IMG/VR virus record: IMGVR_UViG_3300021511_000005
Location: 32,001-96,000 of that record
Source of the DNA: a virus
Reading direction: 5' to 3' (one strand)
Length of the DNA: 64,000 bases
Below the pieces are notes generated by a model. The model was not told the origin of the DNA. It did no database searches and worked only from the letters and a program-made list of their open reading frames with translations. The position numbers were made by a program, and so were the translations under genes. Below, in pieces: positions 45,863 through 64,000 of the stretch; positions within the stretch are counted from its first letter, which is position 1, and each line of letters opens with the position of its first letter.

Positions 45863-46672
45863 ATGCACCAGCTCCGCCTTGCCATCGAGCCCCTGGACGA
45901 CACCCGGCCCATTCCGACCTGCCAGGATGGAACCGGGCCCATCTGCCCCTGGTGCGGGGAGGAGCGTTTCCTGGATGTCCTGGAGTACTGGCCGGAGGAG
46001 CGGGCGTGGATGTTCGATACCTGCTGTGAGGGCTCCCATCAGGATGCCTGTGAGCACGCCGCCCAGGACCCCCGGGGCTTCGGTCGTTGGTTTGAGGGCG
46101 TGACTGGTTGCTACGTCCGTCAGGGTTACCAGAGTACGGTGGAGCCCGACTTTCTCCGCCTGGACTTCGGTTTGACCGTGGGGCCGGTGAAGCAGGCGGA
46201 CGCCAAGGCCTTCATCAGCGAGCATCACCGCCACAACAACGCACCGGCCGGCTGGAAGTGGGGTTTGGGCTGCTACAACGGCCACGAGCTAATCGCAGTC
46301 CTGTGGGTCGGTCGTCCGGTGGCGCGGAAGCTGGACCACACCAAGATCGTCGAGGTCAACCGCTTGTGTGTGAATCCCGACCTGGACCCGGAGCTGGTGT
46401 GGAACGCTTGCTCGAAGCTCTACGCTGAGGCGGCCCGGGAGGCCAAGACTCGGCGCTACGACAGGGCCATCACCTACACCCTGGCGAGCGAGTCCGGCGG
46501 GACCCTGGTGGCTGCGGGCTGGACCCCGACGCACCGCACCGAGGGAGGAAGCTGGGATCGCCCGAGCCGAGCCCGCACCGACAAGGCCCCGACTTGCCAG
46601 AAGATCCGTTGGGAGAAGGGTTGCAACAAGCGCGCCCGTAAGGACATCGCCAAGCGGGCCATCACCCTGTAA
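45863..46672 (+). CDS. XF1762/Mom-like GNAT-fold putative DNA-modification protein
   Basis: 'AKAFISEHHRH', 'VGRPVAR.LD', 'EVNRLC', 'NACSKLY', 'ITYTL.SESG..L.AAGW'. Confidence 0.75.
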   Translation: MHQLRLAIEPLDDTRPIPTCQDGTGPICPWCGEERFLDVLEYWPEERAWMFDTCCEGSHQDACEHAAQDPRGFGRWFEGVTGCYVRQGYQSTVEPDFLRLDFGLTVGPVKQADAKAFISEHHRHNNAPAGWKWGLGCYNGHELIAVLWVGRPVARKLDHTKIVEVNRLCVNPDLDPELVWNACSKLYAEAAREAKTRRYDRAITYTLASESGGTLVAAGWTPTHRTEGGSWDRPSRARTDKAPTCQKIRWEKGCNKRARKDIAKRAITL

Positions 46673-48877: not shown

Positions 48878-49333
48878 ATGACCACCCTGATCATCACGGC
48901 GATCCTGTGGTTGGCGCCTCAGGTGGAGCCGGCGGACGCGAAGCTCTACGCGACTCATATTCAGCGAGAGGCCACCCGCTGGGACCTGGACCCCCTGCTG
49001 GTGCTGGCGGTGATCAAGCGGGAGTCCGGCTTCAACCCCAGGGCCAGGTCCAAGACGTCCGACTATGGCCTGATGCAGGTCCATGTCTCCAAGACGACCT
49101 ACTCCGGCTACCTCCATCATCCGGAACGACTCTACAACCCCAAGCTCAACATCCGTTTGGGGATCCGCCTGATGGCCATCTGGAGGGACTACCACGCCGG
49201 CCGATGTGAGGGTCAGCATCCGTTCTGGGCCCACTTCAAGTACGGCAAACGGATCCCGCGCAAGCGCAAGGGCAAGAAGGTGGACGCTATCTACCGGGAG
49301 CTGGTGGCCAAGTTCCGCAGTTCGGGGGTTTGA
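48878..49333 (+). CDS. lytic transglycosylase (SLT domain)
   Basis: 'LDPLLVLAVIKRESGFNPRA.S..DYGLMQV...LYNPKLNIRLG'. Confidence 0.85.
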   Translation: MTTLIITAILWLAPQVEPADAKLYATHIQREATRWDLDPLLVLAVIKRESGFNPRARSKTSDYGLMQVHVSKTTYSGYLHHPERLYNPKLNIRLGIRLMAIWRDYHAGRCEGQHPFWAHFKYGKRIPRKRKGKKVDAIYRELVAKFRSSGV

Positions 49334-51417
49334 TGCAGCGATACCCGGTGATGGGGCGGGTCCCCAAGGTCCTGCTGCGGAACACCAAGCCCACCCCCAC
49401 GCCGGTTATCAACGGGACGACGGTTCCGCCCATCCGGGAGCTGGTTAACGCGGAGCTGACGCCGGAGCGAATCGCCGCAGCGGTGGAGCTGGCGGGCACC
49501 GCGGCCCAGCACGATCCGGGCTGGAGCTGCGCCTACGATCAGCTGCTGCGGACCAGCTGCTGCTTCTTCGCGACGGAGAAGATCCGGGGCCCCCAGGAGG
49601 AGCCCTATAACGGCAAGTTCCTGGTGGGACGCCATCACCTGGAGTGGGACAAGATGATCCCGCGCTACGACCGGATGAATATCCTGGCGGCGCGGGACCA
49701 CGGCAAGTCCTTCTTCTGGACGCTGGCCTACCCTATCTGGAAGGCCGGCTACAACAAGCCTGGGAGCTTGGGTTACATCTTCAGTTCGACGCAGCCGGAG
49801 GCGGAGAAGTTCCTCCGGATGATCAAGGACGAGATCCTCGAGAATCCGGAGTTCGCCCACCTGATCCCTTACACGCGGGACCGCTACTGGTCGGCCAAGG
49901 AGATCAAGCTCCGCAACGGGTCGGTCATCAGGGCGCGCGGCTTCGGGGTCAAGGTCAGGGGCGGGCACCCCGACTGGGTCATTGCGGATGACGTCCTGGA
50001 CGATGAAGACATCTATTCGGAGACTATCCGCCGGCGCAACGTGGACTACTTCTTGTCCGCCATCGCCAACATGGTTCCGATGCAGGAGCATGTGGTTGAG
50101 CACAAGCGGGCTCAACTAGTGGTCGTCGGGACTCCGATGCACCAGGCGGATCTCTATGCGGCGCTGGACTCCACAGGTGAGTACGAGTGTCGGAAGTATC
50201 CCTGCAGGAACAAGGCGGGGGAGCTGTTGTTCCCCGAGCGCTACAGTGAAGCCACGTTACTCCGTAAGCGGCGGGAGCTGAAGTCAGAGGCCCGGTTCGC
50301 CAGGGAGTTCATGTGTGAACCGCTGAGCGATGAGGCCAGCCTCTTCCCCTCAAAACTGTTCGTGGGAAAGACGGTCAGCGGGGACGCGATTCGTGTGCCC
50401 TACAAGTTGGGGATGCCTGCGAGTTACTGGGAGGCCAAGGGCTGCTTGCGCTATACCGGCGTGGACATCGCGATGTCCGCGGAGACCGGGGGCGACTACT
50501 TCGTGATCTTCACGGTCGCGGTGGACCAGGCGGGCAACCGCTGGATCGCCAACATCACCCGTAAGAAGGGGATCAGCTTCCAGGCTCAGCTCGACTTGAT
50601 CAAGGACGAGTACTATCTCTTGAAGCCCGAGACCATCCTGATTGAGGCGAACCAGATGCAGCGGGTCTGGGCCGACGAGATTGTCCGGGAGACAGACCTA
50701 CCAGTGAAGAAGTTCTTCACGACGGGCGTGGGTGGAACGCAACCGGATCAACCCTGGAAGAAGGGAGCCACGTCCATCAGCGTCAACAAGAATCACCTGG
50801 ACCGTGGCGTTCCGGCGCTGCGGATCTCCCTTGAGAACGGCAAGTGGCGGATTCCGCGCGGGGACGCGGAGGCCATCGAGACCACTGACTACTGGATTGG
50901 GGAGATGGGTGCCATTGGCTGGATCGATGGGAAGGTCCAGTCAGTGGGCGAGCATGACGACACTGTGATGGCCTGCTGGATGTGCAACACGGCGGTCACC
51001 ATGGGCGCGGCCGCGAAGCTCGACATGATCGAGACCGGTCCGGAGGAGCGTCGGGCTATCTTGGCGGCGCCGAAGCCGGAGGAGCTGATGGGAGAAGACG
51101 AGGTCAACACTTTGGAGCAGGACACCAGGAAGGCTTTGGCCGCCGTCCACAGCGGTAAGAAGACCAGCCTGGACCGGGACACCTACATCATGGGGGGCCG
51201 GGATGCTTTGCAACACTACGCCGGTCAGTGCGTGGACTGGGGTGATGAGACCCGGGCGGTGGTGGTGCTGGAGGAGATCAAGCGGCTGGACCGGTTACAC
51301 GGGGTCCGTGCTGGAGACGTCCACCTTGCATCTGCGGAACGCGGAAGGTATGTTCAAGGCGCCGATTGGGCACCCCAGGAGCACGCCCCAACCGCCGAAG
51401 ATCTTGGTGTTACCTAG
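49333..51417 (+). CDS. terL: terminase large subunit
   Basis: Walker A ARDHGKS, Walker B IADD, VGTP, nuclease GVDIA/DYF/HDDTVMA. Confidence 0.92.
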   Translation: MQRYPVMGRVPKVLLRNTKPTPTPVINGTTVPPIRELVNAELTPERIAAAVELAGTAAQHDPGWSCAYDQLLRTSCCFFATEKIRGPQEEPYNGKFLVGRHHLEWDKMIPRYDRMNILAARDHGKSFFWTLAYPIWKAGYNKPGSLGYIFSSTQPEAEKFLRMIKDEILENPEFAHLIPYTRDRYWSAKEIKLRNGSVIRARGFGVKVRGGHPDWVIADDVLDDEDIYSETIRRRNVDYFLSAIANMVPMQEHVVEHKRAQLVVVGTPMHQADLYAALDSTGEYECRKYPCRNKAGELLFPERYSEATLLRKRRELKSEARFAREFMCEPLSDEASLFPSKLFVGKTVSGDAIRVPYKLGMPASYWEAKGCLRYTGVDIAMSAETGGDYFVIFTVAVDQAGNRWIANITRKKGISFQAQLDLIKDEYYLLKPETILIEANQMQRVWADEIVRETDLPVKKFFTTGVGGTQPDQPWKKGATSISVNKNHLDRGVPALRISLENGKWRIPRGDAEAIETTDYWIGEMGAIGWIDGKVQSVGEHDDTVMACWMCNTAVTMGAAAKLDMIETGPEERRAILAAPKPEELMGEDEVNTLEQDTRKALAAVHSGKKTSLDRDTYIMGGRDALQHYAGQCVDWGDETRAVVVLEEIKRLDRLHGVRAGDVHLASAERGRYVQGADWAPQEHAPTAEDLGVT

Positions 51418-51430
51418 CTAGGAGAGGCCC

Positions 51431-54400
51431 TTGTCCCATTACCTACGGAATCCCCTGATACCGGGGCAAGGCCCCAAGCTGGTGATAGGTATGCGGAACC
51501 TGCGGAACGATGTCCGCGTGGACACGTCTGCGCTGGCGGAGTTGACCCGGCCGCCGAAGCCCCTGGGCCGGCCGGTCATACCCGGCGGGGAGCATGAGTA
51601 CCGCTCCGCGGATGAGGTCGCCAAGGGTCTGGGACTCAACCACGACCAGGAGCGGGACTTTCTCCAGGCGATGAAGGCCTGGTTGAGCGAGCCCAACGTG
51701 GTGTCCTTCCGCAAGTCGCTGGTCCGCGGTCTGCGGAAGATGGCACCCGGCAACGGTCCGTTGCGTGGGGAGCTGGCGCGCCGGGCGGTTCAGGTCTGGA
51801 AGGCCACAAGGGGGAACCACCCCTCTCGGACCTACGGACGGGAGGGGCAGCCCCAGGACATCATCCGCAAGGCCAAGAAGGACAAGCCTATCAGCGGTCA
51901 GTTGGGGTTGTTTGGGGGGACGCTGCCCAAGGGCGTCACAGTGGGCAAGCCCAAGAAGCCCAAGAAGCAGGTGAAGGCCGCGGCGGCGAGTGCGGGCTGG
52001 CAGGCGATCCCCGCGGGGAAGCACGGCGGCCAGCGCCGGCGGAAGGGCAATAAGTGGGAGTACCGCTACCCCGATGGTAAGGGAGGCTGGTCAGGCCAGC
52101 CCCAGAAGGCTGAGCCCAAACCGGTGAAGGTCCCAGAGCTGAAGCCCGAGGCCCGGAAGATGGCGTACAAGGGCCTGCGGACCTGGGTCACCGCGAGCGG
52201 TCACGGGACGACCAAGGAGGAGCTGGAGCAGCGACTGGCCGCGGCGCTCGAGGCCCAGAAGCAGTCCGAGGTATTTAGCTTCAAGGTGACGCACGTCAAG
52301 CGGGAGAAGGCCCAGAAGCATGACGACGGCCGATCGGTCCCCGCCTATGACGAGTGGGACGTGGAGGTCGAGCACCAGGCTGCCATTCCCGGTCACCAGT
52401 TGACCGGCAAGATCGAAACGGCCACTGGCGTGGTGACGCTGTTCCACGACAAAGCTACCGTTTCCAAGGACGATTACGCGCGGGCGCAGAGGGGCGTCTG
52501 TGACGTCTGCAAGACCAAGCGTCGGCGGAATTCGGTCTTCGTGGTGCAGCGGGAATCCGACGATAAGCACTTGTTGGTGGGTGGAGAGTGTTCCAAGAAG
52601 TTCAAGGGGGCCAATCTGTGGCGGTTGGCCAACGCCATGGAGGAGGTGGACCTGGGCGGCGCCATCGCGGATGCCTTTGACGAGGGAGAGGGCTTCGGCG
52701 GTGGTGGTGGTGGCGGACCCCGGTCCGCGGAGCCCCACGATCTGCTGGGGACAGCGTTGTGGCTCGTCCGTAAAGAGGGCTATATCGGCGGCGCGGATGC
52801 AGATGCCGAGATGACCATGTCCACACCCGATCGGGTCAAGGAGATCCTGGCCGGGGGGAAGGCCGCCCCAACCAAGGAGGAGCAAGCCGAGATTGATCGG
52901 GAAGCCGAGCTGATCAAGAAGGACCTTCCCGAGATTCGGAAATGGATCCAGGAACGCATCCCCACGGACCCGGACGCGGTCATCACCAAGGACATCGCGT
53001 TTGCGGTGACGGTGGACAAGCTCCTGGGCTCCGATTTCATCGAGCCCAAGCACTTCAGCCGCGTGGTGTGGGTTCCACATCGCTACTACAAGATGGTTCA
53101 GCGGCGTGAACAGAAGGCGAAGGCCAAGCCCTACGAGGCTCCCCACGCCAAGATGCACAACCTCCCCGGTGAGTGGACGATCTTGTCCAACACCGTCAAG
53201 GACTCGGACTACGGTTCCTACAACTCGGTGACCGCGATGGACGCGGAGGGACACAAGATCTGGTTCCGCCAGACAGACGCCTACGATCTGAAGGAGGGGG
53301 ACAAGGTCACGCTCCGCGGCAAGCTCAAGGATCAGAAGGACACCATCACGTTCATGTCCCACATGAAGGTGAAGAATCTGTCCGAGGAGAAGCGGCAGTC
53401 TGTGATCGAGGCCGAAGCCGAGGAGTTCCGCAAGGAGCGGGCGCGGCGGATGGCGAGTACGGATCCGAAGGAAATCGTCCAGGTCAAGATGCACGAGGCC
53501 TATGATCCAACACCAGGCGGCACTGAGCGCCAGTCGGCCTTCCGCAAGAAGCTGGTCAAGGCTGTGGTGGCTTTGATGAAGGAAGGCGCCGAGATCCCCC
53601 ACGACGCCCTGTATACGACGTGGGATTACTTCGACGGCTACGGCGACGACAAACGACCCGAGAAGGAGAAGCGCGGGGACCCGGTAGCCGCCGCGGCTAC
53701 ACGCCAGTATGCCAAGGTCCAGGCCGGCGAGAATCCGGTCAACGCCAAGGAGCTGTTGGAGCTGTTACCCGAGGTGGGGGCTCGCATGATCCGCAAGAAG
53801 TTGGGGGAAGAGGCAGCCAAGTGGATCTTCAAGCGGGCCGGCCTGGCCAAGTCCATGGATGATGATTTGGCGAGGCTGCGGCCGCGGATGATCCTTCAGC
53901 CCACGAGTCACCCTATGGAGCTGGTATGGATGGCCGAAGAGGTCCCGGACAATCTCCACGAGACCTGGAAGCGGATGCCTCCGGGTTGGCCGGCCGCCGA
54001 TGAGATCCTCAAGGCGAAGTACTTCAAGCGGACGGGCTCGCCGGGAAACTACGTTTACTACTACAAGCGAGACGATGGATCGGTCCAGGCCGTCCGCCAG
54101 AAGATGCACCCGGAGGGTGATCCTCGGAGGCGGGGTCCCTACAAGAAGACCAAGAACGCCAAGGGAGAGACCGTTTACACCGGCGGGGAGAAGCCGCCGG
54201 GCGCGGGCTGGGAGAAGATCCCGGAGAGTCCACACGGCGGGATGCGGCGGCCGGTGAGCGGCGGCAAGGTCCGTCAGTGGGAGTTCTGGTATCCGGGTGG
54301 GGGGGAGAAGCAGACGGCGATGTTCGGTGGTGGGGGTGCAGCCCCGCCGGCACCGGCGGCACCCGAAGCGGCCAAGGGTGGCCCGGTCAAGTGGTCCAAG

Positions 54401-56881
54401 ACGGATGGCGGCTACGAAGCCCGCGGCGGCTCCATCAAGATCCGGAAGCAGGGCAAGAAGTGGGAGATGGTCTACTACGGCGAGACCATCCCCATCACCA
54501 CCAGGAAGCCGAGCTTCGACCACGCGGAGGGTTTGATTCGCGAGCGTGAGGCGCCAAAGCAGACCGACCTGTTCCGTGCCCTGATGGCCACGGGTCTCTT
54601 CGAGCTGCGGAAGGCGGCGGGGCACAAGTACTTGAAGCGGATCCCCACGGGCAAGCCCAAGCCCAAGTATCGCTACATCTACCGCCAGCCCAAGGGTGGG
54701 CTCACCAGCTCCAGGGACATCCAGGCCGGCGCCAAATTCAAGGTGGAGCACGCCGGCAAGTTGGGTCACTTCGAGGTCAAGGGCCACGACGCCCACAACG
54801 GAATCGTGACGCTGCAGCATGACGAGTCGGGCAGGATCGCCCATATCCGGGAGAAGGACCTACACCGGATGATCACCAGCCACCACGAGAAGCAGACCAA
54901 GAAGGTTACCGAGAAGCCGGACGAGTTCGCGGCAGAGCGGGCGGAGCTGCGCCAACGGCTGGCCACGAGTGAGGCCAAGCGCCGGCGCGCGGAGAAGAAG
55001 GCCCCCAAGAAGCCGGAGGCCAAGGGGCCCGTTCCGGAGCTTCCGCGGGCGAGCCTGGAAGACCTGGGCAAGGGTGGCTACGACAAGATCGAGGGCTTCA
55101 GTGCCGACCCGAAGGATCTGGAGACGCAGGCGTCCCTGATGGGGGGCGATCGGGAGTATGCGATCATTCCCCAGGCCGGTGGTCACGTTCTGGCGAGCCG
55201 GGCCAAGGCCAGCGGGACGGTCAAGGAGGCCAAGGGAGACAAGGCGGAGCTGGTGATGCGGGGCTCCAAGGGCAAGAGCCTGGACAAGGTGGAGGTGGAG
55301 TACGTGGTGATGGAGGCCAAGGACCTGGTGGCCAGTCATGATCCCACAAGCTTCGAGCCCCGGGCGGCCTATCCCGAGGGCGTCCAGGAGCGGCGTTACG
55401 AGGTCCAGGGCTCCGGTGATCAGGGCAAGATCGATCGCATTGCGCGGGAAATGGAGCCGGCGCTGATGGTCAACACCAATCCGTCCGCCATCGACGGGTC
55501 CCCGATGGTCACCGAGGAGGGGATCGTCCTGGGCGGCAACGGGCGAACCATGGGCCTGCAGCGGGCCTATCAGCTCTATCCAGAGAAGGCTCAGGAGATG
55601 AAGGACTACCTGGCCAAGCATGCCCGCGGCTTCGGCGTTAGCTCCGCAGAGCTGTCCAAGATGAAGCAGCCGGTCCTGGTGCGGCGGATGAAGGCGGAGA
55701 CCAAGGATCTGACCGCGCTGGGTCGGCGGATGAATGAGGCGCTGACCCAAGGCATGGACCCGCGGACCATCGAGGTCGCGCTGGGTCAGAACTACGTCAC
55801 GCCCGAGCTGATGGACAGCCTCACCCACAACATGGACCCGGGCCAGTCGATGTCCGAGTTCCTGCGGACCGCCAAGTCCCGCCCCTTCGTGGAGGCGCTC
55901 GAGCGCGCCGGCGTTATCGACCAGTACAACAAGGACGAGTTCGTGGAGAAGGGAAAGGGTGTCCTGAACGAGGACGGCCGGATGCGGGTGGAGCGAGTTC
56001 TGACCGCTCGCATGATCCCGGATGCCAGCGCCTTGTCCCGGATGGGGACCAAGCTCCGGCAGACCATCGCCAAGAGCGTCCCTTCCCTGATCCAGATGGA
56101 GCGCAACGGGTGGAGCGTCCAGGAGGCGCTGGAGCTGGCCGTCAAGGTGGACAACGACATGCGGCTGGAAGGCTTCAGCGGCGGGACCCGGACGTCCAAG
56201 AAGGCAGGCGGCAAGATCAAGATCCCGATGTCCGAGCACCGCGAGTCCTACAGGCAGCAGCAGACCCTGGGGGACAGCCTTCAGCGCCAGATCGAAGGGA
56301 ACCCGCTGGCCCAGCTCCTGCTCGAGACGATCCAGGACAAGGCGGACAAGAACATGCCGTCCAAGTGGCGTCAGGTGGCGCTCGAGGCGGATCGCCAACG
56401 GGCGCGCAAGGCCTCCGCCGGTGAAGCTAAGGGTCAGGCCATGCTGGGCGGCGAGGACATCGTGGAGGAGCGGTCCTTGGAGGACAGCATCCGCGGCGCG
56501 TTCGGGCTGAAGAAGCAGGCCCAGCAGGGTGGCCTGTTCGCCATGAGCCTCCCGGAGCCGGATCTGGTGAAGGCCGGCGCGGAGCTGACCAGCTACCTGA
56601 TGCACGCGGTCTTGTGGGAGGTCGAGAACCTGATCCGCGGGGCGGTGGTGGACGGGAAGCCCCCGAGCGGCGGGCAGCTTTTGCCGCGGCTCCAGGCCTT
56701 CATCAAGGACCAGGCCGCGGCGGACCAGAAGTTCGCCCAAGCTTTGGGCGCTCATCCCCTGAGTTCGGAGGCCCTGAAGGGGCTCCTGAAGGCCTCCGCG
56801 ATGTCACGATCGACAGACCTGGCCAAGAGCATGGCTCGCTCGAGCCTGCATGCCAGCTGGAGGGATTTGTATGCCGGCTAA
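51431..56881 (+). CDS. giant (1816 aa) mosaic/polyvalent protein with DdrB-like ParB domain; probable virion-internal protein
   Basis: 'YVVMEAKDLVASHD...YPEGVQERRY...DGSPMV..G.VLGGNGR' (~55295-55760); lies between terL and portal. Confidence 0.7.
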   Translation: MSHYLRNPLIPGQGPKLVIGMRNLRNDVRVDTSALAELTRPPKPLGRPVIPGGEHEYRSADEVAKGLGLNHDQERDFLQAMKAWLSEPNVVSFRKSLVRGLRKMAPGNGPLRGELARRAVQVWKATRGNHPSRTYGREGQPQDIIRKAKKDKPISGQLGLFGGTLPKGVTVGKPKKPKKQVKAAAASAGWQAIPAGKHGGQRRRKGNKWEYRYPDGKGGWSGQPQKAEPKPVKVPELKPEARKMAYKGLRTWVTASGHGTTKEELEQRLAAALEAQKQSEVFSFKVTHVKREKAQKHDDGRSVPAYDEWDVEVEHQAAIPGHQLTGKIETATGVVTLFHDKATVSKDDYARAQRGVCDVCKTKRRRNSVFVVQRESDDKHLLVGGECSKKFKGANLWRLANAMEEVDLGGAIADAFDEGEGFGGGGGGGPRSAEPHDLLGTALWLVRKEGYIGGADADAEMTMSTPDRVKEILAGGKAAPTKEEQAEIDREAELIKKDLPEIRKWIQERIPTDPDAVITKDIAFAVTVDKLLGSDFIEPKHFSRVVWVPHRYYKMVQRREQKAKAKPYEAPHAKMHNLPGEWTILSNTVKDSDYGSYNSVTAMDAEGHKIWFRQTDAYDLKEGDKVTLRGKLKDQKDTITFMSHMKVKNLSEEKRQSVIEAEAEEFRKERARRMASTDPKEIVQVKMHEAYDPTPGGTERQSAFRKKLVKAVVALMKEGAEIPHDALYTTWDYFDGYGDDKRPEKEKRGDPVAAAATRQYAKVQAGENPVNAKELLELLPEVGARMIRKKLGEEAAKWIFKRAGLAKSMDDDLARLRPRMILQPTSHPMELVWMAEEVPDNLHETWKRMPPGWPAADEILKAKYFKRTGSPGNYVYYYKRDDGSVQAVRQKMHPEGDPRRRGPYKKTKNAKGETVYTGGEKPPGAGWEKIPESPHGGMRRPVSGGKVRQWEFWYPGGGEKQTAMFGGGGAAPPAPAAPEAAKGGPVKWSKTDGGYEARGGSIKIRKQGKKWEMVYYGETIPITTRKPSFDHAEGLIREREAPKQTDLFRALMATGLFELRKAAGHKYLKRIPTGKPKPKYRYIYRQPKGGLTSSRDIQAGAKFKVEHAGKLGHFEVKGHDAHNGIVTLQHDESGRIAHIREKDLHRMITSHHEKQTKKVTEKPDEFAAERAELRQRLATSEAKRRRAEKKAPKKPEAKGPVPELPRASLEDLGKGGYDKIEGFSADPKDLETQASLMGGDREYAIIPQAGGHVLASRAKASGTVKEAKGDKAELVMRGSKGKSLDKVEVEYVVMEAKDLVASHDPTSFEPRAAYPEGVQERRYEVQGSGDQGKIDRIAREMEPALMVNTNPSAIDGSPMVTEEGIVLGGNGRTMGLQRAYQLYPEKAQEMKDYLAKHARGFGVSSAELSKMKQPVLVRRMKAETKDLTALGRRMNEALTQGMDPRTIEVALGQNYVTPELMDSLTHNMDPGQSMSEFLRTAKSRPFVEALERAGVIDQYNKDEFVEKGKGVLNEDGRMRVERVLTARMIPDASALSRMGTKLRQTIAKSVPSLIQMERNGWSVQEALELAVKVDNDMRLEGFSGGTRTSKKAGGKIKIPMSEHRESYRQQQTLGDSLQRQIEGNPLAQLLLETIQDKADKNMPSKWRQVALEADRQRARKASAGEAKGQAMLGGEDIVEERSLEDSIRGAFGLKKQAQQGGLFAMSLPEPDLVKAGAELTSYLMHAVLWEVENLIRGAVVDGKPPSGGQLLPRLQAFIKDQAAADQKFAQALGAHPLSSEALKGLLKASAMSRSTDLAKSMARSSLHASWRDLYAG

Positions 56882-59800
56882 CGTTGTGACGACTGGGACG
56901 GACGAGGCCCGGTGGGCCCGTGCGAAGGCAGCGGCGGCCAAGCAGGGAAAGGCCAAGAACTACGCGCTGGTGATGCACATCTACAAGCAGATGACCAAGG
57001 CGAAGGACCCGGATGAAGACGAGGGCGAGGCCCACAAGATGCCCATCCCGGGGATCCCCGCGAGCTGGAACAAGGGGGAGATTCTGACCGGTGGCGAGGG
57101 GGACAAGCGGCCGGACTCCGACTTTGACGCCACGGCGCTGAAGCAGGGGATCAAGGTGGAGTTCGAGCACACCACCAGCCGAGCGGTGGCGAAGGAGATC
57201 GCCAAGGACCACCTGACCGAAGACCCCCAATATTACAAGAAGCTGGCGACCATCGAGAAGGCGTTTCCAGGTCCGGCAGCTCCACCGGCGGGACATGCGG
57301 CCGGCGGCGCTCAGATTGGGGAGGTCCACGACTGGGGCCGGGGCAAGATGCGGAAGGTGGCTCCGGGTAAGTGGGAGCCGGTGACGGGGCCGCAGTCGGG
57401 GGCAAAACAGCAGCCCACAGGGCCAGAGCCAGCCACAGAGGGCACGGCGGACCATCACCGTCAGCAGGCCCTGGTCCACACCCAGGCGGCCATGGCGCAC
57501 GCCGTAGCTCACCAGAGCGCCAAGGAGCAAGAAGAGGCCGCCAAGCATGACGACAACGTCAGGGAGGCCAAGGAAGCCAGCCAGGAGGCTTACGAGGGCA
57601 AGGACGGCCGCCCGGTCGAGCCCCAGAGCCTGGAGGACAAGATCAAGGCTCTGATGGAAGAGCACGGCCAAGATGCGGTAGCCGCGGCTACCAGCAAGGC
57701 GGCCAAGGCCACAGCGGCCGGGCTGGACAAGGCTTTCCAGGCGGAGGCCAAGAAGGTGGCGGGCTCTGAGGGTGTCCAAGCGGCCGCCGGCGATGCCATC
57801 GCCGCGGCGGGCATCAAGAAGGGCGGAGAGGCTCCTAGCAAGTCTCAGGTGGACCAGGCGGTCAAGCACGCAGCCCAGGACCCCAACGTCAAGAAGGCGG
57901 CCCGGGATGGGCTGAAGGCGCTTGAGGGCCCCGGCGCGGACGCCTTGGTGTCGGGACTCGAGGCCGCGGTTCCGCCGGAGGAAAAGAAGAAGGCGAGCTG
58001 GAAGACCAAGGCGGCCGCGGTGGCCAAGATGATGATCCGGCCGTTTGTCTTCGGGTTCGTGGATAACTTCGTGATGTATGTCGCGGGTTCCGCGGTGGAC
58101 GGCGCTGTCCAGGGCGCTGGCTTCAGCTCTGCGGCCACGGCGGGGATCGGCAACGCCATCTCTGACGCGGTGGGCGAGACCGCTGGCGGCTTGCTCGAAC
58201 GGGCTCTACCGGACGAGGAGAAGCTGAAGGCGGAGCTGGGCAAGGACACCTACGAGAAGATGGAGAAGTTCCTGCAGCCGCTGGGGGTCTTTACCGGCGC
58301 GCTGCTGGGGATGATTCCGTTGGCCTTCGGGGTATCCTTCGGTAAATCTATGCGGCGGGAGATGGACATCCAGAAGGCCAGAGCCAAGGTCGCCGCGGGG
58401 CAGATGGGCTTCCAGTTTGGGGCGGCGAAGCCGGCCGGCGGCGGCGAGGGTTCGAGGGGTGGCGAAGTTGTGGGTCACACGGCCAGCGGCAAGGCCATTT
58501 ACAAGAAGAAGGTCGCGGACCACGAGGCCAAGGCCAAGGAGCATGCCACCGCGGCAGCCAAGGCGACGGACCACGGTGTTCGGACCAAGCATTTGCACGC
58601 GGCCAAGGCTCACCAGGTTGCCGCGTCAGCCCACCGTATTGGGCACAAGGACGCGGACAAGGTGAGCACGGGGGCGGAAGGTTACAGCCGGCGAGCCCAT
58701 CGGGCGCGGCCGACAGCGCCCCAGCGTCCTAAGCTTCAGCGGCCCACGTCTGCGGACCGTCCGCCGGGGATGCGAGCGAGGGCACCGGCAGCCAAGAAGG
58801 TGTCACAACCACACGCACAACCGGGCTCCGGCTCGCACCTGCAATTCTCAATGGAGGACAACATGGACATGAACAAGGCCGAGCTGCGGAAGTCTCTGAT
58901 CAGTTTCCGCGGTCTGCGGAAGGGGCTGTACAACCGCGTGACCGAGTGGGCCGGTCAATTCATGGGGACGCCGCTGTACGTGGAGGCGTTGCGCTGCCTG
59001 AAAGAGAAAGCCCAGTGCGACAAGGAGGCGGAGGCCACGCGGGCCAAGCATAAGTCTTGGCGTGAGCTGGAGGAGCTTCCGCGGAGTCGGCGCCAGGAGA
59101 TGCGGAAGAAGCAGGACAAGGCCATGGACGTCCACCACCAGCGCAGCAGCAAGATCCTAGCGAAGATGGACGGTTTGGAGGAGAGGCTTCTGGACCACCA
59201 GATCGCGGAGGCGGAGCGGATGGGCAAGGGCGACGTGGACAAGGCCACGCCGATCAACCTTCCGGTGATCAAGTCCACGGACGCTGTTGTCGAGGGGTTG
59301 GAGGAGCTGTTCAAAGCCGGCCAAGCGGCTGGACCTTTCCGCGGTCCCAAGGGTGGGCTGTGGGCTGATCCCGAGCACAAGGTCCCCTATAAGCCGTTGG
59401 CGGGCAAGACGTCCAAAGCCGGACACAAGGGGGCCCACAAGGCTCATGTGATTCACCACGAGCGGGAGGCGGTCCGCGCGCGCAACAAGGGCAACGAGAA
59501 GGTGGCTGGCGCGCACCTGGACGCGGCGGACGCCCACAAGGTCGCGATGAAGGCCAAGCCCACTACGCTTGCGCGAGAGGCTGCCTATTCGGCTACCAAG
59601 AAGGCGAGTCACGACAAGGATCGGGCAATCCGGAAGCAGGCCTCGCACGTCAATAGCCACAAGGACCACGGGCATTATGCCGCCCGGCTCCGCAGCTCGG
59701 CGGAGGAGGCCAAGCAGATGGGGATCGGCTCCCATGTAGACAAGTTGGCCCGGCAGCACGAACAGGCCAGCTCCGCCCACAAGCACGCTGCGGAGATGCA

Positions 59801-61100
59801 CGGTAAGGGGCACGAGTCCGCGGATGACCACAGCAAGGTGGCAGCCAAGGCCACGTCCACGGCCTTCGGGGATCCCACGAAGCTCCCCCCATCACCACCG
59901 CCGGCGAACAAGGAGTCCGTCTTGGGCGGAGGCCACGCCCATCCAGCAGGGACTAAGGGAGCCGCTGAGCATCACGGCAAGTCCAAGGACTACCATGGGC
60001 GCCAGGCCGCCCACGCGCTGGCTCACGGCTACAAGAAGGACGCCATGATGCACGCGATGGCGTCCAAGCTCCACGGGGATGCTCAGGATTTCCACGACAG
60101 CAAGCATGACGACGCGGGCTACTGGAGTGAGATGGCAAACAGCTCTACCAGAGCCGCAGAGCATCCCGAGGGCTTCAGCGACAAGCCGGGGGCCAAGACG
60201 ACCCGAGAGGAGAAGGCAGCGATGGGCAAGAGCTTGGACCAGACGATGGACGATCTGATGAAGGCGGCCAACGGGGAGCCTGTGGCCGCATCCATGCGCC
60301 CCAAGGACGGCAAGGACGCCCAGACCAGTCTGGTGAAGAAGAAGTCTGGAGAGGAAGAGGAGGAGAACGGTCCCGGGGACAGCGAGCACCACAAGGACCA
60401 GGCGATGTCCCATCTGGCGGCCGCCCAGGCCCATGCCACGGCCCACCGTTCCGCGAAGCAGCTCGAATCCGCGGACGGGCATCAGAAGAACGTCGAGGCG
60501 GCGCAGCAGGCCAGCGAGGCCGCAGCTCCGCCGGAGGAGGAGAAGAAGCCGGTGAAGAAGCCAAACGCGATCAAGAAGGGGTCCATGGTGATTCACCTGG
60601 ACGCCGAAGAGGAGATCCTCAAGGGACTGGGCGACTCCGGGTTATCGGTCCAGGGAGCGGCCCAGGATCCCTACGGCAAGTACCGGATGGCTGCCATGGG
60701 GCGCGGAGATCCCGATGAGAACGTTCGCGCGGCGTCCTTCGAGAAGAGCGGGGTGGCCGGCGGGACGATCTTCGAGGGCGAGCACAACACTCAGGGTTTC
60801 CGCGAGGGTGACTCCCGGGAGGCCCATATGCGCGCCCAGGAGCTGGCCCAGGTAGTGGAGGATGACCCGGCGGGCTTCGAGGGTCAGGGCGGCCTTCCGA
60901 GCTGGTGGAGGGACGCGGGCCACCTGGTCAACGTCCCGGTGGGGGTCCGACCGATGGTCAAGGCGGTGGAGCCCCCGGTTCAGATCCTGGACGATTCCGA
61001 CCCTCACACGCGGGCGATGGTCAACACCGATCCGCGCGAGGGGCAGATGGGCGCTCTGATGGCATACAAGGGCGCTGGCAAAGGCCGCGGCACCCGATAG
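56871..61100 (+). CDS. giant (~1409 aa) mosaic protein: DUF5661-like, TMEM65-like and His/Ala-rich modules
   Basis: 'LKQGIKVEFEHT...AKEIAKDHL.EDP.YY.KL'; 'PFVFGFVDNFVMYVAG'; HxxAAxAH repeats. Confidence 0.7.
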   Translation: MPANVVTTGTDEARWARAKAAAAKQGKAKNYALVMHIYKQMTKAKDPDEDEGEAHKMPIPGIPASWNKGEILTGGEGDKRPDSDFDATALKQGIKVEFEHTTSRAVAKEIAKDHLTEDPQYYKKLATIEKAFPGPAAPPAGHAAGGAQIGEVHDWGRGKMRKVAPGKWEPVTGPQSGAKQQPTGPEPATEGTADHHRQQALVHTQAAMAHAVAHQSAKEQEEAAKHDDNVREAKEASQEAYEGKDGRPVEPQSLEDKIKALMEEHGQDAVAAATSKAAKATAAGLDKAFQAEAKKVAGSEGVQAAAGDAIAAAGIKKGGEAPSKSQVDQAVKHAAQDPNVKKAARDGLKALEGPGADALVSGLEAAVPPEEKKKASWKTKAAAVAKMMIRPFVFGFVDNFVMYVAGSAVDGAVQGAGFSSAATAGIGNAISDAVGETAGGLLERALPDEEKLKAELGKDTYEKMEKFLQPLGVFTGALLGMIPLAFGVSFGKSMRREMDIQKARAKVAAGQMGFQFGAAKPAGGGEGSRGGEVVGHTASGKAIYKKKVADHEAKAKEHATAAAKATDHGVRTKHLHAAKAHQVAASAHRIGHKDADKVSTGAEGYSRRAHRARPTAPQRPKLQRPTSADRPPGMRARAPAAKKVSQPHAQPGSGSHLQFSMEDNMDMNKAELRKSLISFRGLRKGLYNRVTEWAGQFMGTPLYVEALRCLKEKAQCDKEAEATRAKHKSWRELEELPRSRRQEMRKKQDKAMDVHHQRSSKILAKMDGLEERLLDHQIAEAERMGKGDVDKATPINLPVIKSTDAVVEGLEELFKAGQAAGPFRGPKGGLWADPEHKVPYKPLAGKTSKAGHKGAHKAHVIHHEREAVRARNKGNEKVAGAHLDAADAHKVAMKAKPTTLAREAAYSATKKASHDKDRAIRKQASHVNSHKDHGHYAARLRSSAEEAKQMGIGSHVDKLARQHEQASSAHKHAAEMHGKGHESADDHSKVAAKATSTAFGDPTKLPPSPPPANKESVLGGGHAHPAGTKGAAEHHGKSKDYHGRQAAHALAHGYKKDAMMHAMASKLHGDAQDFHDSKHDDAGYWSEMANSSTRAAEHPEGFSDKPGAKTTREEKAAMGKSLDQTMDDLMKAANGEPVAASMRPKDGKDAQTSLVKKKSGEEEEENGPGDSEHHKDQAMSHLAAAQAHATAHRSAKQLESADGHQKNVEAAQQASEAAAPPEEEKKPVKKPNAIKKGSMVIHLDAEEEILKGLGDSGLSVQGAAQDPYGKYRMAAMGRGDPDENVRAASFEKSGVAGGTIFEGEHNTQGFREGDSREAHMRAQELAQVVEDDPAGFEGQGGLPSWWRDAGHLVNVPVGVRPMVKAVEPPVQILDDSDPHTRAMVNTDPREGQMGALMAYKGAGKGRGTR

Positions 61101-61109
61101 GAGGCCCTG

Positions 61110-62819
61110 ATGGGCGACTTCATGGAGGGCCTGTCCAAGGCGCTGGAAGGCGTCATGGTGGACGCGATGACCAACGCGATGGCGAAGGCCAACGCGCGGG
61201 ACATCGATGGTCGTCAACCGATGACGCTGGAGGGGGCGAAGCCCCAGCCTCTGCCACCTGAGCCGGCCATGGACGAGCCGACCGGGCTCCTGTTCGATCC
61301 CTTCGCCCTGATTGACCAGTTGGGCTACCGGGACCGGCCCAGCGGCCTGACTTATCAGACGCTGCGGGAGATGGCCAAGCGGGTCCCGACCTATGCGGCC
61401 ATCGAGCAGATCCGGGTCAACCAAATCTGCGGCTTCGCCCAGCCCCAGGAAGACGAGCGGGATCCGGGCTTCAAGATTGAGCTGCGAGACTTCAAGCAGA
61501 CCCCGAGCCGCAAAGACGTCAAGCGCATGAACGAGATAACGGACTGGGTCCAGCAGACTGGGACCGCCTGGGGTCCGACGCGCGATGATTTCCGGACCTT
61601 CCTTCACAAGCTGTCCCGGGACAGCCTCGAGCTGGATCAGGGGACCTTCGAGGTCGGGCTCAACCGCAGGGGGGTTCCAGCGGAGTTCGTTTGTCTTGAT
61701 GGCGCCACCATGCGGCTGGCGGATGTTCCGCCGGGCGCGGAGCATCGACCTGATCCGACGGACATCAAGTACGTACAGGTCTACGATGAGATCATCATCG
61801 GGGAGTTCCCGATCAATCGGCTGTGCTGGGGGATCCGCAACCCGCGGTCTGACATCCGGGCCAACGGCTACGGCTACTCCGAGCTGGAGATGTTGATCAA
61901 CGTCATCACGGCGAGCCTGTGGGCCTTCGAGTACAACAAGCGCTTCTTCTCCCAGGGGACGAGCGCCAAGGGCGTGGTGAACCTGAAGGGCGGCGTCCCC
62001 GATGCCAAGATGGATGCCTTCCGCCGCATGTGGCAGATGATGATTGCCGGCGTGGGCAACGCCCACCGGACCCCGATGGTGTCCGTGGACGAGGTTCAGT
62101 GGATCGATCTGCACAAGTCCAACACGGATATGGAGTACTCCGCGTGGATGGATTGGCTGATCAAGATCACATGTGCGGTCATGTTGATGGATCCGGCGGA
62201 GCTGAACTTCAATTACGGCAACACCGGTCAGGCCAGCCAGATGTATCAGGCGCCGGCCGAGCAGAAGATGAAGGCCTCCAAGGACCGCGGGCTCCGGCCG
62301 CTGTTGACCTACTTCGCCAAGTGGATCAACACCCACCTGATCTGGCGGCTGGACCCCAACTACCGCCTGGTCTTCAAGGGGCTTGACGCCAAGGGCGAGG
62401 ATGAGAAGGTGGACCTGTCCAAGAAGAAGTCCTCCTACCTGATGACGGTGGACGAGCTGCGCGCGGAAGAGGATTTGGAGCCACTGCCGGACGAGCTGGG
62501 GAACGTCATCCTGGATCCCACCTGGCTCCAGAACAAACAGGCCGCCGAGATGGCCGCCCAGGGCGATATGGGGATGGAGGGGGAAGAAGACGAGGAAGGG
62601 CCGGCGCCACCGCCGGGGGTCCCTGGGGTGGATGACCAGGAGGAAGAGGACGACGGTTCAGACGACTTCGATCAGATCTTCGGTCAGGCTGACCAGGAAG
62701 AGAAGTCCCTGTCCGCAGCGGAGCGGATCCGCGCATCACGTCAGCGGCTTGAGGCGGGCCAGCCGGATGACGATCCACTGCAGAAGGCCCGAGTCACCGT
62801 CTACGAGATCGACCTGTAG
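61110..62819 (+). CDS. portal protein
   Basis: 'RNPRSD...GYGYSELE', 'YNKRFFSQG', 'DMEY..W', 'DPAELNF', 'SKDRGLRPLL', 'TVDELR'. Confidence 0.9.
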   Translation: MGDFMEGLSKALEGVMVDAMTNAMAKANARDIDGRQPMTLEGAKPQPLPPEPAMDEPTGLLFDPFALIDQLGYRDRPSGLTYQTLREMAKRVPTYAAIEQIRVNQICGFAQPQEDERDPGFKIELRDFKQTPSRKDVKRMNEITDWVQQTGTAWGPTRDDFRTFLHKLSRDSLELDQGTFEVGLNRRGVPAEFVCLDGATMRLADVPPGAEHRPDPTDIKYVQVYDEIIIGEFPINRLCWGIRNPRSDIRANGYGYSELEMLINVITASLWAFEYNKRFFSQGTSAKGVVNLKGGVPDAKMDAFRRMWQMMIAGVGNAHRTPMVSVDEVQWIDLHKSNTDMEYSAWMDWLIKITCAVMLMDPAELNFNYGNTGQASQMYQAPAEQKMKASKDRGLRPLLTYFAKWINTHLIWRLDPNYRLVFKGLDAKGEDEKVDLSKKKSSYLMTVDELRAEEDLEPLPDELGNVILDPTWLQNKQAAEMAAQGDMGMEGEEDEEGPAPPPGVPGVDDQEEEDDGSDDFDQIFGQADQEEKSLSAAERIRASRQRLEAGQPDDDPLQKARVTVYEIDL

Positions 62820-62827
62820 GAGAGATC

Positions 62828-63226
62828 ATGAGCACCGTATATATCCGCCACCGCGTTGTGGTGGTGGCCGCGATGGACAGCGATGAGAAGAACCTCCAGC
62901 TGAAGCGGGAGGACGAGACCTTGACCACCGTCAACGATGAGCTGGCGGCGGAGGAGTCGGGTCACGCGGTCCTGGGGTCGGGTGAGACGGGTTTCAGTCT
63001 CCCCATGGGCAAGGTGGCCACCGGGGCGCTTCTCTTCATCGAGAGCGATAAGGAGCTGGTCCTCAACTTCGATGGCGGCGCGGAGGACATTCCGATCAAG
63101 CCGACGCAATCGGGGGTCAAGGCGAAGCTGCTGTTGACTAGCAGCTTCACCACGGCACCGAGCCTGGACAACGCCACTTCGGAGGTTGCTAACGTGACCT
63201 TCCTGATTGCCGGCGCCACGGCTTAG
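62828..63226 (+). CDS. hypothetical beta-rich structural protein
   Basis: SD AGGAG; follows portal. Confidence 0.65.
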   Translation: MSTVYIRHRVVVVAAMDSDEKNLQLKREDETLTTVNDELAAEESGHAVLGSGETGFSLPMGKVATGALLFIESDKELVLNFDGGAEDIPIKPTQSGVKAKLLLTSSFTTAPSLDNATSEVANVTFLIAGATA

Positions 63227-63227
63227 G

Positions 63228-63473
63228 ATGAAGATCCGCGTGGAGGCGGAGCCCGGCGAGCTGCAGGAGCGGCTGGGCGATGCGATCAAGGTCCTGCAGA
63301 CGCTGTCCTTGGAGAAGGCGCTGCCCGGGATCCCGGATACGCATACCGACCAGGAGCCGCGGCCGCTGGATTACGAGGTTCTGCAGGCCGCGGTGGTCCG
63401 AGCGAACCAGCGCCAGGTCGTCCGCATCAAGCGAGCGCTGGACAAGCGGGTCGCGCAGATCCTGAAGGGGTAG
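63228..63473 (+). CDS. hypothetical head-region protein
   Basis: MKIRVEAEPGEL...; contains LEKA. Confidence 0.6.
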   Translation: MKIRVEAEPGELQERLGDAIKVLQTLSLEKALPGIPDTHTDQEPRPLDYEVLQAAVVRANQRQVVRIKRALDKRVAQILKG

Positions 63474-63476
63474 CTC

Positions 63477-64000
63477 TTGGCCCTGTTGACACCAGAACAG
63501 CTGGAGCAGCTGCGGCGCGCCATTCAAGACGCATCGACCGCCGTGGCAATCTCCACCGTGGGCCACACGGTCACGGATGACGAGCTGCAGCGGCTGGTGG
63601 ACGAGGGCTGGGTGGATCCCGATAAGGTAGACGACGTCGTCATGACGGGTTTCCAGTACGGTAATCTGTTGAGCCACCTTCCCCGGGCCGCGGACATGGG
63701 CCTGGGGGCCTTCATCAAGGAGATCCAGCGGAACCCGATCAAGCTGTCCGCCGCGGAACGCCAGGCCGTCCAGATCGCGAGGGACCGTGCTGGCCAATAC
63801 TGCGCGGGCCTGGGCTCGAGGTACAACGAAGAGATGGGCCGGATGGTGGTGGAGGCGGACGCCCAGCTGGCCAAGGTTACTCGAGAGTTGATTGCTGACG
63901 AGACCGCCAAGAACATCGCCACACGCGGGACGCGGAAGCAGCTGGGTCAAACCCTGGGCAAGTTGACCCGCGACTGGGCCCGCGACTGGCGCCGAATCGC
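63477..64000 (+). CDS. MuF/SPP1-gp7-like minor head protein (runs off the window end)
   Basis: Open from TTG 63477 to the end; 'LGKLTRDWARDWRRI' typical of this family; post-portal position. Confidence 0.65.
   Translation, partial: MALLTPEQLEQLRRAIQDASTAVAISTVGHTVTDDELQRLVDEGWVDPDKVDDVVMTGFQYGNLLSHLPRAADMGLGAFIKEIQRNPIKLSAAERQAVQIARDRAGQYCAGLGSRYNEEMGRMVVEADAQLAKVTRELIADETAKNIATRGTRKQLGQTLGKLTRDWARDWRRI

Follow-up and report, generated by a model that had tools for sequence, protein, structure and literature searches.

TMEM65 is a mitochondrial inner-membrane protein that is needed for Na+-dependent Ca2+ efflux, and the activity of the human protein requires residues D132, D167, G170, and E178 (PMC12830682); among further human mutants (Vetralla et al.), G140L and Q195E behave like the wild type and E144Q exceeds it. 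TMEM65 has recently been put forward as the mitochondrial Na+/Ca2+ exchanger itself. Phage polyvalent cargo proteins have so far been understood as sets of soluble enzymes that are injected to work on the DNA, RNA, and proteins of the host. The polyvalent protein DdrB of phage P1 was found in virions by mass spectrometry (PMC9024508), the Dar proteins, DdrB among them, are reported to be co-ejected with the DNA (PMC12810830), and the DdrB-ParB and InPase domains have been reported only from phage-type, virion-packaged polyvalent proteins (Iyer et al. 2017, PMC5512222). The main text of that survey, which treats 131 domains, mentions no TMEM65, transmembrane, or membrane domain (PMC5512222), and in literature searches on TMEM65 in phages we found no relevant paper and no account of such a fusion. 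Here we describe a TMEM65 domain embedded in a giant protein that is encoded in the head operon of an uncultured tailed phage, IMG/VR record IMGVR_UViG_3300021511_000005 (109,478 bp, estimated to be ~97% complete). The window, that is, the whole 64,000-nucleotide stretch analyzed, comprises bases 32001–96000 of this record. The finding that is new here is a monophyletic TMEM65 module inside polyvalent cargo proteins, which is found in about twenty other giant phage proteins, themselves probably delivered by virions. The relatives and the gene context suggest that the DNA of some phages may enter the host along with a membrane ion module.

Results

A TMEM65-Family Core within a Giant Phage Protein

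The first-pass annotation of the window singled out a TMEM65-like segment at 58029–58340. Translation of this segment in frame 1 of the plus strand indeed gives 104 stop-free residues that contain PFVFGFVDNFVMYVAGSAVD, SSAATAGIGNAISDAVG, and GVFTGALLGMIPL, and translation of the minus strand across the same positions is interrupted by a stop. The peptide corresponds to residues 394–497 of P0002, a mechanically called open reading frame (ORF) of 1416 residues (56850–61100), the numbering of which is used throughout. The resemblance to TMEM65 was borne out by the Pfam profile PF10507, which matches the whole protein with an E value of 5.8e-14 (52.4 bits) and the fragment with an E value of 5.3e-16 (59 bits), the cut-off being 25 bits. 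The aligned part of the profile runs from position 5 to position 107 of 109, and a genome search repeats the match at 57.6 bits.

The family motifs FGFxDN, GxGNxxSD, and GxxxGMxPL lie on three successive helices of the segment, all encoded on the plus strand. Helix 1 (residues 394–416; 58029–58097), delimited by alignment and by AlphaFold2 (AF2) modeling, harbors the FGFVDN motif with D405 (58062–58064). Helix 2 (residues 425–448; 58122–58193) is rich in Gly, Ala, and Ser and carries the sequence GIGNAISD, including D439 (58164–58166), as well as G442 (58173–58175), and E450 (58197–58199) is located just past it. Helix 3 (residues 474–497; 58269–58340), which coincides with a Kyte-Doolittle peak and an AF2 helix, contains the GxxxGMIPL motif. 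In an alignment of 48 sequences (the domain and 47 relatives), columns F22, G23, D26, N27, G34, G55, N56, G104, and G108 are invariant. The AF2 model of the domain is all-helical, with helices at 5–32, 34–43, 48–72, 77–84, and 86–108, a predicted local distance difference test (pLDDT) score of 90.3, and a predicted template modeling score of 0.74. By profile and motif content, this segment is thus a true TMEM65-family domain, reduced to its core of three helices.

Structural comparison of the AlphaFold model by Foldseek agrees with this assignment, as searches of viral models (BFVD) gave four top matches with probabilities of 0.98–1.00. Three are giant-virus proteins and the fourth is a 94-residue protein, probably that of Vibrio phage 2.275.O (see next section); in the ESM Atlas, TMEM65 clusters appeared only as sub-threshold leads (0.80). 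The PDB contains no sequence relative of the domain, the best Foldseek match to the PDB has an E value of 2.1, and the best match in a wide VIA-align search has a Z score of 6.3, within helical-bundle noise. The first-pass annotation had also placed TMEM65 in a VIT/CCC1-like group. This placement was not supported: no VIT1 (PF01988) profile match was obtained in Pfam at E≤1 with either the protein or the fragment, VIT1 is absent from the Foldseek and VIA-align matches, and we found no paper linking the families. As judged from the predicted model, fold comparison with the PDB adds no functional information and no support for a relation to VIT1.

The functional residues of human TMEM65 were mapped onto P0002 through P0040, a relative of the eukaryotic type in which all seven spacings of the human protein recur. 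By this indirect mapping, the four required residues D132, D167, G170, and E178 correspond to D405, D439, G442, and E450, while the G140 and E144 positions are occupied by G413 and D417. In the clade of 19 sequences to which P0002 belongs (see next section), D405, D439, and G442 are each conserved in 18 of 19 members, and all 19 carry an acidic residue in place of E178. By contrast, the position of the dispensable Q195 varies freely. Because the required residues are kept while the dispensable one varies, the alignment argues for retention of the biochemical core of the family rather than of a generic hydrophobic anchor.

Over the 1416 residues of P0002, hydrophobic peaks (19-residue Kyte-Doolittle averages) are present only at residues 391–425 (1.38) and 478–496 (1.82), and no segment of the protein exceeds helix 3 in hydrophobicity. 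Helix 2, weakly hydrophobic throughout the family, averages 0.46 in P0002 and 0.54 in its clade compared with 0.86 in the rest of the family, a contrast that stems from one clade and thus does not represent independent observations. The low value in the clade would suit a module that has to remain soluble while inside the capsid. A holin was also considered and ruled out, as the helices form part of a giant protein and a lysis context is lacking.

A Single Clade Fused to Polyvalent-Protein Domains

An exhaustive phmmer search with residues 380–510 against 1.84 billion representative proteins (E≤1e-3) identified 552 relatives. Strikingly large proteins dominate the top of this set: 12 of the 13 best relatives are 1251–3037 residues long, with the domain at widely variable positions, and the remaining relatives are mostly of 110–700 residues. 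All 15 giants (1251–3037 residues) fall into a single clade of 19 tips with a support of 0.989. Orthologues of P0002 are 51–54% identical to it across 750–760 residues and have the same layout. The tree suggests that phages captured the TMEM65 domain once and that it is now a mobile module of polyvalent cargo proteins.

The clade has a tail of its own, PLLFGVxFGKS, after helix 3. Consistent with the first-pass annotation, which had an FGKS motif directly following the domain, F497–S500 (58338–58349, plus strand) abut helix 3, and the motif is invariant in the phage clade and confined to it. Indeed, FG[KG] follows helix 3 in 17 aligned domains, from proteins with a mean length of 1658 residues, and in none of the 133 others.

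Pfam scans revealed polyvalent-protein domains in every scanned member of the clade except two close orthologues of P0002 and one 1251-residue protein. DdrB-ParB or ParB domains are found in about 10 (P0004, P0008, P0011, P0012, P0014, P0015, P0155, and the giants in L016, L017, and L026, that in L016 looking identical to P0015). InPase is present in three (P0005, P0007, and the L026 giant), ART-PolyVal in two (the giants in L015 and L026), and LPD1 in two (P0007 and, more weakly, P0011), while the match of P0004 to DarA_C is weak, at 25.2 bits where the cut-off is 27. In addition, four members contain SNF2 or Strawberry-notch (Sno) helicases (P0009, P0010, P0155, and the L017 giant) and one an N6-methylase (P0009). 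In L018, the gene for the large terminase subunit (TerL) is located directly 5′ of the giant.

In P0002 itself, scans against Pfam, PHROG, and NCBIfam recognized DUF5661 and TMEM65 only; the whole protein has no PHROG match at E≤0.01 and belongs to no NCBIfam family. Because only these two domains were recognized, P0002 is, on its domain content, better termed a component of a split polyvalent/cargo system than a canonical polyvalent protein. Its phage spreads the domains over three giants around the portal gene, carrying ddrB-ParB, TMEM65, and InPase, respectively, and because relatives combine these domains in one polypeptide, the three giants would be expected to work as one functional system. 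The homology of the neighboring giant to the virion protein P1 DdrB and a head-specific protease-site-like motif (see below) are indirect indications that the TMEM65 giant may be carried in the virion and enter the host together with the DNA.

Among 50,697 cultured phage records, we found no polyvalent-type TMEM65 module, and the sole match was the 94-residue protein of Vibrio phage 2.275.O, a stand-alone TMEM65-like protein encoded among transfer RNA genes. The module was likewise not found among 72,556 plasmids, nor, with two strict peptide patterns, among 185,579 species-representative prokaryotic genomes. Mid-sized proteins with a TMEM65 domain (~250–500 residues where checked; L005–L012) occur on IMG/VR viral contigs, and more TMEM65 matches lie on contigs of giant-virus metagenome-assembled genomes (GVMAG; L019–L023).

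The Gene Lies in the Head Operon

The gene for the TMEM65-bearing giant extends over 56871–61100 on the plus strand, as delimited from the ORF list, translation, and third-position GC content (GC3), and encodes 1409 residues from the ATG at 56871. This ATG is likely the translation start, because GGAGG is located 8 nt 5′ of it, the gene overlaps the stop of the upstream gene by 11 nt, and the database gene call (P0153) is also of 1409 residues. The GC3 of the P0002 ORF, 0.82, is like that of the confirmed genes of the phage. At the 3′ junction, the portal ATG follows 10 nt past the TMEM65-gene stop, with GAGG in front of it.

The proposal of the first-pass annotation that the domain sits in a giant head-region protein is upheld by this position, between the gene for TerL (49330–51417, plus strand; Pfam Terminase_6C; phrog_38, E 4e-58) and that for the portal (61110–62819, plus strand; Pfam Phage_portal; phrog_12, E 2e-45). 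The genes from TerL to the InPase giant form one tight operon, and with the protease and capsid genes they follow one another on a single strand in the order TerL, 1816-residue giant, TMEM65 gene, portal, InPase giant, protease, and major capsid protein (MCP). The 1816-residue polyvalent protein (51431–56881, plus strand) contains a ddrB-ParB domain at residues 1285–1421 (PF18763, E 2.5e-21), and its residues 1285–1793 (window 55283–56809) are homologous to phage P1 DdrB, with 25% identity (E 1e-10, tblastn). In one P1-like record, DdrB is annotated as a putative metallopeptidase. Only the start of the 1069-residue InPase giant (PF18823, E 2.2e-35) lies in the window (63477–64000, plus strand; genome 95477–98686), and this protein also matches PHROG families termed minor head protein. 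A sheath shows that the phage has a contractile tail, and its head module, which includes the MCP and the prohead protease (genome 101048–101854), is of the HK97 type. No cultured phage has a TerL more than 31% identical to that of this phage. A Mom-like DNA-modification gene is present at 45863–46672, and a gene for an SLT-type transglycosylase is found at 48878–49333, directly 5′ of the TerL gene.

Candidate Prohead-Protease Sites

The residues downstream of the FGKS tail include DIQK|A (residues 506–510; 58365–58379, plus strand), a candidate protease site recognized by motif enrichment and conserved position. It conforms to the strict motif [DE]-hydrophobic-x-K-[ASG] and is the first such site in P0002, seven residues after FGKS, with no K-type site upstream. 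Compared with shuffled sequences, the motif is overrepresented in P0002 (7 vs. 1.1), in the 1816-residue protein (6 vs. 1.3), and in the MCP (2 vs. 0.1), where one site, DLRK|A at residues 28–32, is located where a short propeptide would end. Over the head region (window 51431–64000 plus genome 95477–105376), its density is 3.85 per 1000 residues (25 in 6,499 residues) compared with 0.55 (13 in 23,668 residues) in the other 77 ORFs, a sevenfold enrichment (Poisson 1e-13) of a motif that was defined post hoc from the same proteins. The highest densities are seen in a scaffold-like ORF (genome 101865–103274, with five sites) and in a small ORF after the MCP.

The position of the first site also recurs in the clade. 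Eight members have the motif at +5 to +7, and most of the others have a hydrophobic-x-K|[AGS] sequence (LLFK|A, LLLK|S, or similar) within ~40 residues. The motif [DE]-hydrophobic-x-K|[ASG] looks like a prohead-protease site, and because such a motif occurs seven residues past FGKS, release of the TMEM65 module by cleavage is plausible. Past the candidate cut, P0002 carries a QMGFQF motif (58401–58418, plus strand), in place of which relatives have QLSLF, QLDLF, or QLGLF; these sequences of the relatives resemble the pentapeptide consensus for binding the bacterial beta clamp.

Other Regions of the Giant Protein

N terminal to the membrane core, a DUF5661 domain (residues 95–137; 57132–57260, plus strand) was identified with PF18905 (E value of 4.4e-11; 43.4 bits, with a cut-off of 27), and a tblastn match to an uncultured 462-kb phage spans this region. 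It is followed by a small predicted beta-hairpin, G.MRKVAPGKWEPV (residues 159–177; 57324–57380, plus strand; AF2 pLDDT 77–89), to which an RKVAPGKW peptide in P0008 is nearly identical. A helical predomain (approximately residues 240–393; 57567–58028, plus strand), delimited by BLASTP alignments and by AF2 helices with pLDDT 73–88, leads into the core. Alignments to 14 of 14 giants start 100–250 residues ahead of the transmembrane core, and this ~150-residue predomain was found together with the core in all giant relatives. The larger, 406-residue AF2 model has a pLDDT of 62, that is, moderate confidence, and was used for secondary structure only.

C terminal to the core, a recurrent 20-residue motif, GPFRGPKGGLWADPEHKVPY (residues 828–848; 59331–59393, plus strand), was detected through short BLASTP matches and is present in one to four copies in related giants (four in P0007 and two each in P0004 and P0013). 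Its consensus is GPF[IR]GP[RK]GG[KL]WADxxH[KT][IV]P[WY], and it usually lies just C terminal to a K|[ASG] site; cargo fragments might be docked or targeted by means of this motif. The C-terminal region (residues 1125–1415; 60222–61097, plus strand) is 60–71% identical to P0154 and P0003, is conserved only with these two closest orthologues, and has no match in Pfam, PHROG, or NCBIfam. Helices of the type H..A..AH..A..AH repeat at residues 199–237, 533–618, and 1176–1226 (57444–57560, 58446–58703, and 60375–60527). These His/Ala-rich repeats cross-match between P0002 and its orthologue P0154, with the histidines along one putative helix face, and possibly bind metal.

Discussion

The observations above can be combined in a model in which the giant protein is stored in the capsid, trimmed, ejected, and inserted into a membrane as a cation module. 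The protein would be made late, from the operon that runs from TerL to the portal, and the procapsid would take it up along with its DdrB/ParB and InPase neighbors. Cuts by the prohead protease at [DE]-hydrophobic-x-K|[ASG] sites would follow, the first of them, K510|A511, yielding a fragment of ~500 residues that comprises DUF5661, the beta-hairpin, the helical predomain, and, at its C terminus, the TMEM65 core. Such a fragment would end just after helix 3, as stand-alone TMEM65 proteins do. It would leave with the DNA, its marginally hydrophobic helices would enter the host cytoplasmic membrane, and a network of D405, N406, D417, N435, S438, D439, and E450 would bind or conduct cations. The outcome might be local ion flux or depolarization, or the anchoring of cargo at the entry site. 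We consider this model as a whole to be evenly poised between right and wrong. Its most specific form, in which a capsid-stored exchanger or channel of the TMEM65 type is protease-trimmed, co-injected, and self-inserting and shifts ion gradients or the membrane potential within seconds, is possible and rather doubtful.

Several points weigh against the model. That the protein is in the virion, is cleaved, and reaches a membrane is what we infer from context and homology, and whether TMEM65 is itself an ion transporter is still debated (PMC13483046). The K-site motif derives from the proteins in which it is enriched, the low hydrophobicity of helix 2 amounts to the property of one clade, and P0002 itself has no signature enzymatic polyvalent domain. 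A three-helix monomer is small for a transporter, and basic residues past helix 3 conflict with a simple N-in/C-out topology. To our knowledge, moreover, integral membrane proteins are not known as capsid cargo of tailed phages. Finally, the strongly hydrophobic helix 3 (1.82) could route the nascent protein to the membrane of the producing cell, in competition with packaging.

In an alternative, the module would be inserted cotranslationally and act late in infection, in the producer-cell membrane. It would adjust cation balance there, as may be presumed of the stand-alone TMEM65 homologues of phages and giant viruses, or tether the giant protein and its partners until assembly or lysis. Helix 3 is hydrophobic enough for capture by the signal recognition particle or YidC, phages have stand-alone TMEM65-like genes outside head modules, as in Vibrio phage 2.275.O, mid-sized versions occur on viral contigs, and the absence of known membrane-protein cargo would find an explanation. 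However, helices 1 and 2 are weakly hydrophobic, helix 2 even more weakly in the clade, the gene belongs to the head operon, and its product has the K-site motif that is specific to head proteins. In addition, the module is fused to DdrB-ParB and InPase, domains reported only from packaged polyvalent proteins (PMC5512222). We therefore regard action in the producer membrane as unlikely. The weak hydrophobicity of helices 1 and 2, both under the usual transmembrane threshold (1.38 and 0.46), would suit a soluble packing or oligomerization element, the Gly/Ala-rich, zipper-like helices of which bundle cargo in an inner body or core of the capsid; the remainder of the protein, low-complexity helix rich in His, Ala, and Lys, is compatible with such a role. 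Yet the module retains the acidic and polar intramembrane residues on which human TMEM65 depends, the hydrophobicity of helix 3 is clear, and all other known family members are membrane proteins, which makes a purely structural, soluble role quite improbable.

The first-pass annotation had suggested a releasable, virion-delivered module acting in the ejection conduit, in depolarization, or in exclusion, and of these three roles that in the conduit is the least likely. In podoviruses, internal proteins form channels across the envelope once they have been ejected, as with T7 gp15/gp16 or P22 gp7/gp16/gp20, and the present phage has an SLT-like transglycosylase gene just 5′ of TerL, which could speak for an inner-membrane channel for DNA. 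In contrast, contractile-tail phages normally use a tube and tape measure, a three-helix domain with a cation site is far too small to serve as a DNA pore, and P0002 matches no PHROG ejection or internal-virion family. The module is also rare and variably placed inside proteins of the anti-defense type, unlike a conserved essential ejection gene, and a conduit function thus appears very improbable. That the giant is a chance or annotation artifact, a spurious ORF or a read-through small gene, is effectively refuted. Long spurious ORFs are common in high-GC genomes, but here the GC3 of 0.82, the Shine-Dalgarno start, the coupled neighboring genes, the orthologues 51–54% identical over 750–760 residues with the same layout, and the profile E value of ~1e-14 all argue otherwise.

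Were the capsid-stored module real, it would be the first case of a transporter-family protein delivered by virions. With 105 residues, it would also be a minimal model, from a virus of prokaryotes, for the mitochondrial Na+/Ca2+ exchanger, the identity of which is disputed. A transporter-family module that keeps its ion-site residues would extend the injected toolkit of polyvalent cargo to the host membrane, and it raises the biophysical question of how a capsid can hold a membrane domain that is to insert once it has been ejected. In research on TMEM65, the phage modules are of interest as bare three-helix cores that reveal which residues survive the greatest evolutionary distance sampled here, and they offer small constructs in a bacterial system for reconstitution and structure determination.

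Membrane-active ejection proteins and internal virion proteins are exemplified by T7 gp14–16, P22 gp7/gp16/gp20, and the internal proteins and Alt of T4. The logic proposed for P0002 is the same, namely capsid storage, protease trimming, co-expulsion, and action at the envelope, but PHROG comparisons reveal no sequence relationship, and those proteins are conduits or soluble enzymes, none of them from a cation-transporter family. With eukaryotic TMEM65, the phage module shares the family profile, the three-helix core, the FGFxDN, GxGNxxSD, and GxxxGMxPL motifs, and all four activity residues. However, TMEM65 is a stand-alone protein of ~240 residues with a targeting peptide and an acidic tail, whereas here a core of ~105 residues is embedded in a 1409-residue phage protein, has a one-residue deletion between helices 1 and 2 and a less hydrophobic helix 2, is followed by the FGKS tail and a cleavage-like site, and would meet a prokaryotic host.

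The stand-alone viral TMEM65-like proteins, that is, the 94-residue NVP2275O_332 (PF10507) and the proteins of Megaviridae, Mimivirus, and a Heterosigma virus in BFVD, belong to the same family and end right after helix 3, as would the predicted mature fragment of P0002. In contrast to P0002, they are encoded by small separate genes outside head modules, lack the FGKS tail, the helical predomain, and the polyvalent partners, and fall outside the 19-tip clade. Polyvalent proteins such as P1 DdrB and DarB (PMC5512222) differ from P0002, which has no enzymatic signature domain of its own and belongs to a system that is split over three genes around the portal. What P0002 shares with them is its setting among the head-operon giants of a terminase–portal phage, next to a DdrB homologue, and relatives in which the module is fused to the same set of domains.

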